Below are positions 10,577-14,412 of a stretch of DNA of 39,917 nt, in pieces; position 1 is the first letter of the stretch, and every line of letters begins with the position of its first letter. The notes below the pieces were generated by a model, which saw nothing but the letters and a program-made list of their open reading frames with translations, ran no database searches and was not told the origin of the DNA. The translations under genes and the position numbers were made by a program. This stretch comes from a virus (lineage: Duplodnaviria > Heunggongvirae > Uroviricota > Caudoviricetes), in the IMG/VR virus record IMGVR_UViG_2851976983_000004. The stretch is one strand, 5' to 3'.

Positions 10577-11152
10577 ATGGGAACGTATTACACACTTGAT
10601 TCCGCTAGTCGTCTGCCTTCGCCTTGTCATGTAATTACCGGAAAATACGAGCCTGAAATGCCAGAACTGGCCGCTTTTCTTCATCAGATGTATCCCAATG
10701 GCCTTTCGAGTCACGGGTATAACTATCTCTATAACCCCGGCCCTAAAATGGAAGATGACAGTGGAATCAGCAGAAGTCTGCTGGTCGGTCTGGTGTTTGA
10801 GTTAGTTCGCCGTAGCCATTTTCCTGATAAACCTTCCCGCTATCAGTCACTGTTTGCCTGTCAGCATCTGAGTGAAGTCAGGAAGTTCAGGGAATTACTG
10901 GCTGATGAGAGAGGCGAAGACGAAATAAGAACGGCACCGATATATGAAGTCATCACAAATGAGCAGGTGCATCGCGGAGATATGAGGTTATTGAACAGTG
11001 ATTGCCCGGTGCTGGAACTGTATCACCGTGCTTGGCTTTACTGGTCGGGTGAAGCAGCCCCAGTTAAGACTGGTGAGGACGAACCGTTCTGGGAACTGCT
11101 GATTCCGCTTCCAGTATTCGTTGGTCGAAGGATAACTGAATCGCAGGATTAG
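10577..11152 (+). CDS. hypothetical protein
   Basis: 191-aa ORF, no family recognised. Confidence 0.5.
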   Translation: MGTYYTLDSASRLPSPCHVITGKYEPEMPELAAFLHQMYPNGLSSHGYNYLYNPGPKMEDDSGISRSLLVGLVFELVRRSHFPDKPSRYQSLFACQHLSEVRKFRELLADERGEDEIRTAPIYEVITNEQVHRGDMRLLNSDCPVLELYHRAWLYWSGEAAPVKTGEDEPFWELLIPLPVFVGRRITESQD

Positions 11153-11387
11153 GTGCGGTTTTATATCGTGATGTCGCCGCCACATCGCCAATTAGCATGA
11201 CGTTGTTTTCTCCGCTGGCGAAATGACTTCTTCTCTCTTCAAGTGCAACCAGAACGTTTTTCAGCTCTATAATCGCTTCGGTTGGACAACATGCATCCAA
11301 GCTTAGCGTGTAAGTTTTATTCTGCTCTCCGATTCTGCTCCCAAAGAGGAACCCTTTTTTAATACCAGACTGTTTCGGTTCAGTCAT
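11064..11387 (-). CDS. hypothetical protein (convergent, overlaps 3' end of previous gene)
   Basis: ORF 11064..11447 trimmed to ATG 11387 preceded by GGGGAGG; overlaps 10577..11152 antisense by about 89 bp, so one of the two may be wrongly called. Confidence 0.3.
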   Translation of the reverse strand: MTEPKQSGIKKGFLFGSRIGEQNKTYTLSLDACCPTEAIIELKNVLVALEERRSHFASGENNVMLIGDVAATSRYKTAPNPAIQLSFDQRILEAESAVPRTVRPHQS

Positions 11388-11458
11388 TGTGCTTGCCTCC
11401 CCTATGTTTTGTGTGCGACCATTCTGGTCGCTTCCCTCTGCGAACACTTATAACGCGC

Positions 11459-11467
11459 TTTAAAATC
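11459..11467 (+). promoter_or_regulatory. recurring motif TTTAAAATC (candidate late promoter -10 region) upstream of lysis genes
   Basis: One of four occurrences of TTTAA(A/T)ATC 30-56 nt upstream of the first gene of a late gene block. Confidence 0.3.
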
Positions 11468-11517
11468 CGTATCCCGCCACATTTGTGATGCTGTCTCCAC
11501 CAAACAAGGAGACACAC

Positions 11518-11868
11518 ATGAAAAGCCTGAAAAAATTCATTCCCCCTGTTAAAAAACCTCGCCTCAGCGGCTGGCTGCTGACCTCAGTGCTGTTGCTGGG
11601 CACCATCGCTCTGGTCTCGCCACAGCAGTTGCCTGTTGTGATCTACAAGCTGGCACTCATCACGCTGGCAGCAGTGCTGGGTTACTGGCTTGACCGTTCG
11701 CTCTTCCCCAAAGCCCGTCCCGGTCAGTACCTGAAACATGAAGACAGGCTGATGGCTGAAGGGCGTTTCCCTGTGCAGACCGGCCTTCACCTTGTATTTT
11801 CTGCTGCGTTAATCCGCCGTGCACTGATTGTTGCAGCGGTCTGTCTGGCTGTGGCAACAGGACTGTGA
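11518..11868 (+). CDS. membrane protein, putative holin
   Basis: ATG at 11518 preceded by AAGGAG; about 116 aa with three hydrophobic segments; immediately upstream of endolysin. Confidence 0.45.
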   Translation: MKSLKKFIPPVKKPRLSGWLLTSVLLLGTIALVSPQQLPVVIYKLALITLAAVLGYWLDRSLFPKARPGQYLKHEDRLMAEGRFPVQTGLHLVFSAALIRRALIVAAVCLAVATGL

Positions 11869-12599
11869 CCATGAACTGGCCTCAAATCACCCTCATTATT
11901 CTGTTCGCCTTTGGTCTGGGCGTAACCGCCATCAGACACGGCGAACCACGTAACGATAAATACAGCTTCTGGTGGCAGCTTGCTGGCAACCTGGTGATTG
12001 TCTGGCTGCTCTGGTGTGGTGGCTTCTTCAGTCAGGCCCGCGCAGCGCAGCCTCCGCAGGCTGCGCTGCAGTATCGCGATGATGTGATCCGTAATGCCCG
12101 GCTTGAATGGGGACTGTCTGCGCCGGTGGCAGATTTCGCCGCGCAACTGCATCAGGAAAGCGGCTGGCGACCTGATGCGGTCTCGCCGGCTGGTGCTCAG
12201 GGACTGGCGCAGTTCATGCCTGCCACTGCCGACTGGATAAGTCAGCTGATGCCGGGACTTAACAGCCGTGAGCCGTTTAATCCGGCATGGGCCATCCGGG
12301 CGCTGGTCAGCTATGACCGCTGGCTGTGGCAGCGCGTCAGCGCCGCCAACGACTGCGAGCGTATGGCCATGACACTGTCAGGCTATAACGGTGGTCTGGG
12401 CTGGGTACAACGGGACAGGCGGCTTGCATCACAGAAAGGTCTGGACAGCACCCGCTGGTTCGGACATGTCGCCACGGTGAATGCCGGACGCAATGCGGCC
12501 AGCTGGCGGGAGAACCGCCATTATCCGCAGCGCATCCTGCGCGAACTGGCACCGCGATATCTCACATGGGGAGGCAGCAGTTGTGTGGCATCTGGTTAA
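11865..12599 (+). CDS. lytic transglycosylase endolysin (SLT domain) with N-terminal membrane anchor (SAR-like)
   Basis: HQESGWRPDAVSPAGAQGLAQFMPATA catalytic-region motif; N-terminal hydrophobic segments; start GTG 11865 or ATG 11871. Confidence 0.8.
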   Translation: MTMNWPQITLIILFAFGLGVTAIRHGEPRNDKYSFWWQLAGNLVIVWLLWCGGFFSQARAAQPPQAALQYRDDVIRNARLEWGLSAPVADFAAQLHQESGWRPDAVSPAGAQGLAQFMPATADWISQLMPGLNSREPFNPAWAIRALVSYDRWLWQRVSAANDCERMAMTLSGYNGGLGWVQRDRRLASQKGLDSTRWFGHVATVNAGRNAASWRENRHYPQRILRELAPRYLTWGGSSCVASG

Positions 12600-13233
12600 A
12601 AAGCTGCCGTGGCGCGGCATTCTGCTGGCCATTCTTATCAATGCCTTTCTGATCGGCCTGTATGCCATGGGATACAGAAGTGGTCATGACTCTGCAAAGC
12701 GTGACGGTAATACCGCGCTCAGTCAGTTGCAGTCAGCATTTGACGCGTACAAAACGGCGCAGGCAACGCTTGAGAATGCTGCGCTGCGGGCTTGGGCCAG
12801 ACGGTATCAGGAGCAGGTGGCCGCCGGGCAGCGGGCTGAAGCCGGTTATCTTGAGCAGATTGCTCAACTGGAGAGCCGGAACAAACAACTACAGGGGCAA
12901 ATTAACGATGTCACACAGCGCTGGATTGATGAAAAAGGTAAGAGTCATCCCATTGAGTGCGTGTTTACTCGCGGTTTCGTGCGCCAGTACAACGCCGCAC
13001 TCGGATATGACAACGCATCCGTCGACACCGGTCATTCAGACTCAGTTGCCGCCACTGGCACCCGCTCTGGCACAGCGACCGGGCAACCTGAAACCACTGA
13101 CACCCGGTTACGCGATTCGGGTGTCTCCCAGCGTGACGTTCTCGCCAACATCATCGACAACGCATGGCAATGTCGTCGCTGGCGGAACCAGATAAACGCG
13201 CTGCTGGATGAACGGGAAGGATTACAGAAATGA
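12583..13233 (+). CDS. i-spanin (Rz-like), N-terminal TM anchor and coiled coil
   Basis: ORF 12481..13233 trimmed to GTG 12583 (GGGGAGG 8 nt upstream); TM WRGILLAILINAFLIGLYAMG then coiled-coil region. Confidence 0.55.
   Translation: MWHLVKKLPWRGILLAILINAFLIGLYAMGYRSGHDSAKRDGNTALSQLQSAFDAYKTAQATLENAALRAWARRYQEQVAAGQRAEAGYLEQIAQLESRNKQLQGQINDVTQRWIDEKGKSHPIECVFTRGFVRQYNAALGYDNASVDTGHSDSVAATGTRSGTATGQPETTDTRLRDSGVSQRDVLANIIDNAWQCRRWRNQINALLDEREGLQK
12929..13195 (+). CDS. o-spanin (Rz1-like lipoprotein) embedded in +1 frame of i-spanin gene
   Basis: MKKVRVIPLSACLLAVSC lipoprotein-like signal with lipobox, proline-rich mature part; entirely inside i-spanin gene. Confidence 0.5.
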   Translation: MKKVRVIPLSACLLAVSCASTTPHSDMTTHPSTPVIQTQLPPLAPALAQRPGNLKPLTPGYAIRVSPSVTFSPTSSTTHGNVVAGGTR

Positions 13234-13556
13234 CACTGCAGGTTGAATTCTGGACGGTGGTGAGTTTTCTGCTCACCTTCATGGGGTTTGTGGGAGGGCT
13301 CGCCAAATGGTTGTTCAGTAAAACAGAAGAACGCCAGGCGGCACGATTCGCCTCCCTTGAACAGGCCCTGCAACAATCCGCCTCCAACTGGGGCGAGCTG
13401 GAAAAAGAATTTATGCGATTTAAAGCGGATTTACCGCTGAATTATGTCCGTCGAGAGGATTATATCCGTGGCCAGACAGTCATTGAGGCCAAACTGGACG
13501 CGCTTTATAACAAACTGGAAGTGGTACAGCAGTACCGCAATACCGGAGGTCAATAA
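13230..13556 (+). CDS. small membrane protein (lysis-associated?)
   Basis: 108-aa ORF, N-terminal TM helix, ATGA overlap with upstream gene. Confidence 0.5.
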   Translation: MTLQVEFWTVVSFLLTFMGFVGGLAKWLFSKTEERQAARFASLEQALQQSASNWGELEKEFMRFKADLPLNYVRREDYIRGQTVIEAKLDALYNKLEVVQQYRNTGGQ

Positions 13557-13867
13557 TGGTCGATATTACCCGAGTACGCCGCGAATCCCTGCGCTGGAGT
13601 CTGCTGGTTGCCCTGAACAAGACCCGCCCTTACACCGCCAGCGAGACGCTGCTGCTGGATGTGTCCCGTGCCATCTACCCGGACACCACACCGCTGGAGC
13701 TGCGCCGCGAACTGGATTATCTGGCTGACCGTAAAATGGTTGAGCTGGAGAAAAAACCTTCTGGTGACTGGTTTGCTGACCTGACCCGCCTCGGCGTAGA
13801 CCTGGTGGAATACACCGTGGAATGTGGTCCGGGTATTGCCCGCCCGGAAAAGTACTGGAGTGAATAA
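13556..13867 (+). CDS. hypothetical protein
   Basis: 103-aa ORF in operon, 1-nt overlaps on both sides. Confidence 0.5.
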   Translation: MVDITRVRRESLRWSLLVALNKTRPYTASETLLLDVSRAIYPDTTPLELRRELDYLADRKMVELEKKPSGDWFADLTRLGVDLVEYTVECGPGIARPEKYWSE

Positions 13868-14412
13868 TGGCCAGACGCAGCACAATAGAAAAGCTGCCGG
13901 AAGACGTGCGCCGCTGGCTTGAACGGGCGCTGACTGAATCCGGCTTCAGCGGGTATAACGAGCTGGAGTCCCTGCTGCGTGAGCGGGGATACGTCATCAG
14001 CAAATCCGCTATCCATCGCTATGGACAGAAGATTGAGCGCCGCTATGGTGCTATCCGTGCGGCGACAGAAGCGGCCCGCATGCTGACCGAAGGCGCAGCA
14101 GACGATCAGGATGCGCGTTCGGAGGCTGTGATAGCCCTTATTCAGACCGAGCTGTTCGAGAGTATTGTCCAGTTGCAGGAGGCGGAAGAAGGCGAAGTCG
14201 ATCCTAAAGAACGCGTGGCCCTGCTGTCGAAGGTGGCGAAGAATGTGGCTACGCTGTCACGCGCGTCCGTCAACCTCAAAAAGTTCCAGTCTGAAGTGCG
14301 AGCCAGAGCGCAGCAGGCAGCCAGCAACGCAGAGAAAATTGCCCGTAAGGGCGGACTGTCAAGCGACGCAGTACAGGCGCTTCGTCGCGAGATTCTGGGG
14401 ATTGCCACATGA
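13867..14412 (+). CDS. Mu gp27-like protein (DUF3486), putative terminase small subunit
   Basis: N-terminus MARRSTIEKLPEDVRRWLERAL...ISKSAIHRYGQ matches Mu gp27-like family pattern; directly upstream of terminase large subunit. Confidence 0.65.
   Translation: MARRSTIEKLPEDVRRWLERALTESGFSGYNELESLLRERGYVISKSAIHRYGQKIERRYGAIRAATEAARMLTEGAADDQDARSEAVIALIQTELFESIVQLQEAEEGEVDPKERVALLSKVAKNVATLSRASVNLKKFQSEVRARAQQAASNAEKIARKGGLSSDAVQALRREILGIAT

Follow-up and report, generated by a model that had tools for sequence, protein, structure and literature searches.

What is encoded at positions 11518-13556 of the viral record IMGVR_UViG_2851976983_000004 (Caudoviricetes), and how might the endolysin in this interval, which begins with two hydrophobic segments, be exported and controlled? 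The window, i.e., the whole stretch of DNA analyzed here, is 39,917 nucleotides long, and the interval reads as five tightly packed genes on the plus strand whose ends touch or overlap: a holin, an endolysin of the SLT family, an inner-membrane spanin (i-spanin), an outer-membrane spanin (o-spanin) nested in the i-spanin gene, and a homolog of BcepMu gp25. We conclude, with a probability of roughly 85%, that these genes are the late-operon lysis set of a BcepMu-like (Mu-type, transposable) Escherichia coli prophage, acting in the order proposed below. By sequence comparison the cassette belongs to the already described BcepMu type; what is new is the nested o-spanin gene, which had not been annotated, and a module with two transmembrane domains (TMDs) fused to the N-terminus of the endolysin.

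The record of Burkholderia phage BcepMu (AY539836; Summer et al. 2004) lists gp21 as holin, gp22 as 'soluble lytic murein transglycosylase', gp23 as Rz, and gp24 as 'Rz1, out of frame, embedded proline-rich protein', and it continues, in the same order as the window, with gp25 ('putative inner membrane protein'), gp26, and the small terminase TerS. The two cassettes agree in gene order and overlaps, including the Rz1 gene embedded out of frame, and the amino acid identities are 51% (gp21), 61% (gp22), 32% (gp23), 37% (gp24), and 53% (gp25). Downstream of the cassette, the window likewise contains a gp26-like gene, a gene for a small terminase of the Mu gp27 type (Pfam Phage_Mu_Gp27, E=1.3e-56), and one for the large terminase (TerL). 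Since an annotated cassette has the same order and five homologs, the cassette in the window is a member of a described type. Its DNA is present in 637 of 5,426 complete E. coli genomes (about 12%). Over 2.5 kb, many E. coli chromosomes match the sequence with 100% identity; Escherichia phage PhiKM, a classified member of Bcepmuvirus, matches with 97%, and Klebsiella phage KP12 matches with 90%. The initial annotation of this DNA had proposed a complete lysis cassette here, and the holin, SLT endolysin, i-spanin, and embedded o-spanin are indeed all found in 11518-13556; the features it described are present, and the fifth gene (13230-13556) had been left out of the description. The comparison with characterized Mu-like cassettes that it suggested yielded one-to-one homologs in BcepMu gp21-gp25. 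Its view of the module as "somewhat unusual" has to be abandoned, given the matching order, the match of all five proteins to BcepMu, and the frequency in E. coli genomes.

The first gene (11518..11868) encodes a protein of 116 amino acids that matches the Pfam family PF13272 (Holin_2-3; E=1.1e-40, 138.6 bits compared to a cutoff of 27) and the holin family phrog_1528 (E=1e-53) and is homologous to BcepMu gp21. The hydropathy profile displays three hydrophobic segments (about residues 16-35, 40-58, and 92-116), and the N-terminus, MKSLKKFIPPVKKPR, is basic. Thus, the family model, the size, and the TMDs are those of a PF13272 holin; the gene adjoins the endolysin gene on its 5' side, and its RefSeq name is 'putative holin'.

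The i-spanin gene (12583..13233) starts with a GTG codon that is preceded 8 nucleotides upstream by GGAGG and overlaps the 3' end of the endolysin gene by 17 nucleotides. The product of 216 amino acids has one N-terminal TMD (residues 12-30) behind a basic N-terminus, matches the 'Rz-like spanin' family phrog_1403 (E=6.4e-91), and is homologous to BcepMu gp23 Rz (E=9e-10). In the RefSeq record of strain TW10573, a 'lysis system spanin subunit' is placed at the i-spanin coordinates. A survey of spanins found at least one periplasmic cysteine in either subunit in 507 of 528 systems and placed the BcepMu spanins among the embedded families (PMC6139136). In the window, the i-spanin contains two periplasmic cysteines (Cys126 and Cys197), and the mature o-spanin has no cysteine besides the lipidated one, so any covalent link must come from the two residues of the i-spanin. 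The cysteine present in the mature o-spanins of BcepMu and Photorhabdus has been lost here.

The i-spanin gene contains the entire o-spanin gene, which is read in the +1 frame and ends at 13195; translation from ATG 12908 gives 95 amino acids and that from ATG 12929 gives 88. The signal and lipobox, MKKVRVIPLSACLLAVSC followed by AST, conform to a PROSITE PS51257-type rule, and the lipobox cysteine (Cys25 from ATG 12908) is encoded at 12980-12982. The 88-residue form contains 13.6% proline. The mature protein, which is identical whichever start is used, comprises 71 amino acids, about 15% of them proline, with alanine at position +2. Under the +2 rule of Lol sorting, a residue other than aspartate at this position fits the outer membrane, and the o-spanin should therefore be directed there. 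The gene spans 0.50 to 0.94 of the i-spanin gene length, a placement typical of embedded spanins (PMC6139136).

Could such a reading frame simply be a chance opening in a GC-rich gene, which is not expressed, with the outer membrane disrupted by something else? Considered as a single sequence, the evidence for the embedded frame is weak, because synonymous shuffles of the i-spanin gene produced an alternative-frame open reading frame (ORF) of at least 88 amino acids in 48-61% of cases and a lipobox ORF in 5-7%. In addition, the product matches no PHROG, Pfam, or NCBIfam family, neither the 88- nor the 95-residue version occurs in a collection of 15 billion protein sequences, and the RefSeq and GenBank records that we examined do not list the gene. 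Against this stands the comparison of related loci. With the gp25-like gene as the anchor, we fetched 80 loci of gamma-, beta-, and alpha-proteobacteria, and 47 of them contain an intact i-spanin homolog. A proline-rich lipobox ORF lies entirely within the i-spanin gene in 44 of the 47, always in the +1 frame; among the exceptions, the o-spanin gene of one locus (L072) overlaps the end of the i-spanin gene without being embedded, and another locus (L009) is rearranged. The o-spanin is conserved across Enterobacterales, Burkholderia, Pseudomonas, and Rheinheimera, and the frame is kept although the identity of the i-spanins falls to about 30%. The embedded frame is even conserved above its host frame: in close relatives, residues 19-62 of the o-spanin are 84-98% identical, compared to 77-84% for the overlapping part of the i-spanin and 59-80% for its non-overlapping part. 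The products have the pattern ACLLxxSC-(A/S)xTTPP...LPPLxPAL..RP...PLTPGY in common, with the lipobox AVSC in E. coli and the consensus VASC, LASC, LVSC, or LSAC in relatives, and the product in the window is homologous to the annotated BcepMu gp24 Rz1 (37% identity, E=1e-4). Because of its conservation in 44 of 47 loci in one and the same frame, we regard the embedded ORF as a genuine Rz1-type o-spanin gene. The comparative data effectively refute a chance origin, to which we would give almost no weight.

The start codon and the stretch upstream of it are also conserved. The start at 12908 (ATG, or GTG in Burkholderia) is kept in every lineage, including Dickeya and Brenneria, which have no ATG at the position of 12929; a purine-rich, Shine-Dalgarno-like stretch is conserved about 9-10 nucleotides upstream of it; and it corresponds to the annotated start of BcepMu gp24. 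Translation of the o-spanin thus probably begins at ATG 12908 rather than at 12929. In the initial annotation, the gene downstream of the endolysin had been called i-spanin-like, on which the family match, the single N-terminal TMD, and the BcepMu homology agree, and a proline-rich lipoprotein ORF had been seen inside it at 12929..13195, as in lambda Rz/Rz1. The nesting and the lipoprotein signal are borne out, and of the coordinates the end, the frame, and the mature product stand, whereas the start is better placed at 12908. The likeness to lambda Rz/Rz1, the prototype of embedded two-component spanins, consists in a proline-rich lipoprotein o-spanin whose +1-frame gene is fully contained in that of the i-spanin and in an i-spanin that is a type II membrane protein. 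In sequence, the window o-spanin is not detectably homologous to lambda Rz1. The window products are also larger (216 amino acids for the i-spanin and 71 for the mature o-spanin, compared to 40 for mature lambda Rz1; PMC6139136), and since the window o-spanin lacks a periplasmic cysteine, a disulfide could form only between i-spanins. Several beta-proteobacterial loci carry a second, unrelated lipoprotein family (...YDLYG.CAGR...L.DW) directly 5' of the gp25-like gene (L036 and L038, 3715-3972; L040, 1052-1321; L068, 1166-1450; L075, 3744-4004; L076, 3529-3786), which probably represents another o-spanin family that occupies this slot.

The endolysin gene (11871..12599) starts with an ATG three nucleotides past the holin stop and encodes 242 amino acids. 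The protein matches the Pfam SLT domain (PF01464, E=8.5e-15, 54.8 bits compared to a cutoff of 21.3) and the endolysin family phrog_669 (E=2.6e-70), and residues 65-234 are 61% identical to BcepMu gp22. The SLT motifs HQES, GLAQFMP, and GYNGG are all found, in agreement with the signature of family 1 lytic transglycosylases. A profile built from 24 endolysin homologs (64-95% identity) matched the catalytic domain of E. coli Slt70 (1sly_A) with E=1.9e-9. Glu96 of the HQES motif (codon 12156..12158), the predicted catalytic residue, is invariant across the 24 homologs and is aligned to the glutamate of RQES in Slt70, which, counting along the alignment ourselves, we take to be the catalytic Glu478. 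In the 15-billion-sequence collection, 810 contigs carry the exact endolysin sequence. Two cysteines, Cys162 (12354-12356) and Cys238 (12582-12584), are invariant in the 24 homologs and recur in BcepMu gp22; a periplasmic disulfide may join them, and such a pair would suit folding in the periplasm.

The N-terminus differs from that of BcepMu gp22. The BcepMu protein has 203 amino acids and a single N-terminal hydrophobic segment, MRVLIAFVVALLGAAAPVAA followed by QVP, whereas the window endolysin is about 39 residues longer and begins with a hairpin module of two TMDs (residues 1-54, MNWPQ...GGFFS; 11871..12032). TMD1 comprises residues 6-21, ITLIILFAFGLGVTAI, and TMD2 comprises residues 37-54, LAGNLVIVWLLWCGGFFS; the loop between them (residues 22-36), RHGEPRNDKYSFWWQ, contains five charged residues in the part RHGEPRNDK. 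Directly after TMD2, and between the module and the catalytic domain, lies a junction of the signal peptidase I type, QARA-AQPP, with an AxA motif (Q55-A56-R57-A58-A59; 12033..12047). Among the 24 fused homologs, W3, P4, Q5, L47, G50, G51, F52, F53, A58, and A59 are invariant, as are the two cysteines mentioned above, and A56 is conserved in at least 90%. An AxA follows GGFF in all 51 unique fused viral proteins.

The hydrophobic N-terminus followed by small-x-small is common to every relative of the endolysin, and the segment in front of this junction is variable. Most of the family are single-TMD relatives with one hydrophobic segment and then small-x-small, like an ordinary Sec signal peptide; besides BcepMu, Rheinheimera (MRKILVLGCLGALSLALLQSAMA followed by GD) is an example. 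The two-segment form is seen in Enterobacterales, Dickeya, Pandoraea, and many viral contigs. The N-termini of the Brenneria and Photorhabdus endolysins resemble internal-deletion derivatives of it, with a single helix and the AxA kept. In the PhiKM endolysin (L003, 3421-4161), TMD1 and the loop segment are replaced by a charged sequence beginning with MNWPQITWIVCMSLKLAFEAFRVFIRTERLSVRAGTFLVHMAW, which leaves one clear TMD, and the remainder is nearly identical to the window protein; either a compensated frameshift or a distinct allele could account for this N-terminus. For this endolysin family, N-terminal plasticity with the look of a cleavable signal has been recorded before. Burkholderia phage KS10 has an SLT lysin and a holin (gp9/gp10) homologous to those of BcepMu, its lysin differs from that of BcepMu at the N-terminus and has a cleavage site predicted by SignalP, and, unlike in the window, no Rz/Rz1 was identified (PMC2628397).

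The module is itself related to a family of small free-standing proteins. Residues 1-54 match phrog_5479 (53 positions, function not assigned) with E=8.6e-14. The family has no Pfam model, and our literature search found no paper on phrog_5479 and none on a two-TMD endolysin anchor. A word-index search with residues 1-63 gave partial fragments only, and exhaustive phmmer was required, which retrieved from 1.84 billion representatives at least 493 proteins at E<=1e-3 (each representing a cluster at 50% identity), mostly of 53-62 amino acids. The 150 hits that were listed included 148 further ones, among which 120 have 50-65 amino acids and 20 are tandem duplicates. The alignment of the module with the free-standing proteins is colinear and gap-free, and the motifs WPQ, HG.P, and GGFF are common to both; the free-standing proteins are separate genes that stop at GGFF(S), whereas the window chain runs on into the AxA and the SLT domain. 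In the family, lysine and arginine average 0.06 in the N-tail compared to 2.5 in the loop. With a tail almost free of charge and the positive residues in the loop, both termini of the module are predicted to be periplasmic, which is the right topology for carrying a periplasmic enzyme.

A scan of viral contigs with a degenerate DNA pattern found 119 in-frame matches to the module, of which 62 were free-standing, 55 were fused to SLT, and two were truncated. The family includes Burkholderia phage Mica gp63, BcepB1A gp72, and Xanthomonas phage FoX5 gp66; the module loci are L062 (2848-3033), L086 (2501-2671), L087 (2495-2665), L088 (2495-2662), and L089-L208. FoX5 gp66 (L086, QJB22044.1) is a membrane protein of 56 amino acids that is labeled 'lytic murein transglycosylase' and has no SLT domain; the N-terminus of fused endolysins was probably the source of the label. 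The genes adjacent to 58 free-standing copies were mostly those for replication and recombination (SSB, 11; RusA, 6; polymerase processivity factor, 6; Sak4, 5). Only seven of the 58 directly adjoin a spanin gene, and the idea that the free-standing module is a general lysis-cassette gene was rejected. In a Jeongeupia prophage, the module gene is located between a putative holin gene and an i-spanin gene, 3' of what by eye seems to be a soluble cell-wall peptidase.

The fifth gene (13230..13556), whose ATG overlaps the i-spanin stop (ATGA), may bear on the control of the endolysin. It encodes a single-pass membrane protein of 108 amino acids that belongs to phrog_462 (E=1.6e-36) and is homologous to BcepMu gp25. 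The label 'lipoprotein' of phrog_462 is wrong, as the protein has no cysteine. Its TMD (residues 7-25) is preceded by Glu6 and followed by Lys26 and Lys31, so the protein is predicted to be N-out/C-in, and the cytoplasmic domain contains the invariant motif P-L-x-Y-V-R-R-E-D-Y. In phage Mu, the lysis genes encode the SAR (signal-anchor-release) endolysin gp22, the spanins gp23/gp23.1, and the releasin gp25 (Chamblee et al. 2022, PMC9239132). The window resembles Mu in the order of endolysin, spanins, an N-out/C-in membrane protein of about 100 amino acids, a gp26 of about 100 amino acids, and TerS of the Mu gp27 family, and the gp25-like protein has the size, the topology, and the position (third gene after the endolysin) of a releasin. 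The differences are considerable. Mu has no holin; Mu gp22, which has one SAR helix, is a muramidase, in contrast to the two-TMD SLT transglycosylase in the window; and the Mu spanin genes overlap but are not embedded. Moreover, Mu gp25 is a DUF2730 releasin, and the gp25-like protein matches neither DUF2730 nor phrog_736. It had no hit to PF10805 at E<=10, whereas Mu gp25 matched with 2.5e-13; the two belong to different PHROGs (462 and 736); and hhalign (64 compared to 18 sequences) gave a probability of 5.6%. We therefore rejected its identification as a DUF2730 releasin; the comparison covered Mu-type (type I) relatives, as the homolog search yielded no type II or III members. Position and topology suggest a role analogous to that of the Mu releasin, and the gp25-like protein is thus a candidate non-DUF2730 analog in a phage that, unlike Mu, encodes a holin. 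Of the 80 fetched loci, nearly all have the gp25-like/gp26-like gene pair (13230-13867; L006-L085) ahead of a Mu-type small terminase gene, also when their holin, endolysin, and spanins bear no relation to the present ones.

How, then, does the endolysin reach the cell wall? The SLT endolysin with N-terminal hydrophobic segments described in the initial annotation is confirmed, and the segments had been taken there as consistent with a SAR endolysin. That part of the proposal fits less well. A SAR endolysin has a single, weakly hydrophobic TMD rich in Gly, Ala, Ser, and Thr; the window protein has two segments separated by a charged loop, and by our own count these residues make up 38% of TMD1 and 28% of TMD2, compared to 63% in the SAR domain of Mu gp22. 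The AxA after TMD2, moreover, is the type of feature that the initial annotation had named as speaking against a SAR endolysin, and its motif and conservation argue for cleavage. As a true SAR type, the endolysin would reside uncleaved and inactive in the inner membrane until a pinholin-type depolarization released the anchor and the enzyme refolded into an active form, with the gp25-like protein perhaps assisting as a releasin. Glycines within the hydrophobic segments (GLGV and CGGFF) and the absence of a basic N-terminal region would fit such a behavior. The cysteine of TMD2 (LLWCGG), common among the fused homologs, is reminiscent of the thiol-isomerization control in P1 Lyz, but it is replaced by serine or alanine in several homologs. 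SAR transglycosylases do exist in Pseudomonas Mu-like phages (PMC9239132), and the gene after the spanins encodes a cytoplasmic protein tethered to the membrane that is placed and oriented like the Mu releasin but is not a DUF2730 protein. The exit of two TMDs into the periplasm would drag the five charges of the loop through the membrane, and many relatives, such as that of Rheinheimera, have seemingly ordinary cleavable signal peptides. The low content of small residues together with the charged loop leads us to favor export by the hairpin followed by cleavage, and we consider the SAR mechanism unlikely.

Another possibility is that the hairpin remains uncleaved and tethers the enzyme permanently. 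The wall would be reached via a flexible linker of about 30 residues, and the module would be a functional membrane protein, holin-like or regulatory, that couples the activity to the state of the membrane. The conservation of the module as an autonomous family with its own motifs, hundreds of representatives, and tandem duplicates points in this direction, as do the Jeongeupia arrangement, the free-standing copies next to spanin genes, and the fusion that is intact in at least 51 distinct proteins. Yet most free-standing copies sit amid replication and recombination genes instead of lysis genes, the invariant AxA would be unexplained without cleavage, and in Brenneria and Photorhabdus the module has collapsed to a single helix with the AxA kept, which suggests that only a generic export role is needed. 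Tethering is accordingly conceivable but not likely in our estimation. The fusion itself is observed, and its significance is a matter of hypothesis. Under one doubtful proposal, the endolysin is a two-in-one precursor, a phrog_5479 protein fused to a secreted transglycosylase, in which cleavage at the AxA would regenerate both and the membrane peptide would act in lysis control as a holin partner, an antiholin, or a depolarization sensor. Hairpin export followed by signal peptidase cleavage is the reading that we prefer from sequence, and several points weigh against it and against the lysis scheme as a whole. Topology, cleavage, and lipidation are deduced from motifs and conservation, and the AxA might be conserved because the beginning of the mature domain requires it structurally, instead of for cleavage. 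The AlphaFold model of the endolysin (built with the 24 homologs) contains helices at residues 3-21 and 33-49 and is of low confidence at residues 56-60; its mean pLDDT (predicted local distance difference test score) of 56.7 was too low for a fold search, so the secondary structure alone was used. A transglycosylase exported before holin triggering would have to be kept harmless, the holin is a predicted one that may be of the large-hole or the pinhole class, and the mature o-spanin is, its lipidated residue aside, devoid of cysteine.

The following lysis sequence may be proposed. The holin would accumulate in the inner membrane and, at the trigger time, permeabilize and depolarize it. The SLT endolysin would be exported independently of the holin, its hairpin inserting with both ends in the periplasm; the charge distribution points to a cytoplasmic loop and a periplasmic C-terminus of TMD2, i.e., an N-out/C-out module. 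In this export step, the presence of the hairpin and its homology to the free-standing family are observations. Signal peptidase I would most likely clip the invariant ARA-AQ junction to give a membrane peptide of about 58 residues and a soluble periplasmic transglycosylase, which would be restrained until the holin is triggered; that the enzyme stays tethered is less likely. In either case, glycan strands would be cleaved through Glu96. The i-spanin in the inner membrane and the lipoprotein o-spanin in the outer membrane would bridge the periplasm and, after the wall has been cut, fuse both membranes. The position and topology of the fifth, membrane-tethered cytoplasmic protein suggest that it might control endolysin release or holin timing, like Mu gp25.

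The surroundings of the cassette add little on its expression. A scan of 10900-14000 found no sigma-70-like promoter, and terminator-like sites were not above those in shuffled sequence. The absence of a promoter before the holin gene fits a late promoter dependent on a Mor/C-type activator, but the scan is uninformative. A gap of 365 nucleotides without a sigma-70-like promoter lies 5' of the holin gene. Just 5' of the cassette is a gene for a DUF2441 protein (10577-11152, plus strand; phrog_5663), overlapped on the opposite strand by an ORF of 127 amino acids without a family match (11064-11447, minus strand). Decayed endolysin or i-spanin genes, with an in-frame stop, a frameshift, or a truncation, were observed in prophages of insect-associated bacteria (L010, 2627-3355, Ca. 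Erwinia dacicola; L015, 2643-3367, Apirhabdus; L016, 3284-3400, Symbiopectobacterium; and L017). These interruptions suggest that the prophages are decaying.

About one in eight complete E. coli genomes carry a prophage whose annotation lacks the o-spanin gene, which is also unannotated in the relatives in Salmonella, Klebsiella, Pectobacterium, and others; its addition is a simple correction. The fused module has already caused errors of annotation transfer, as in the 56-residue protein of FoX5. If the endolysin were indeed a two-in-one precursor, it would represent a fourth mode of endolysin export and regulation besides the cytoplasmic, SAR, and plain signal-peptide modes, and it would give the first functional handle on the phrog_5479 family of small proteins. 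The export signals of this endolysin family are very plastic, comprising plain signal peptides, the two-TMD module, and deletion derivatives, all in front of a constant AxA, and they form a natural series for what separates SAR, tethered, and cleaved endolysins.

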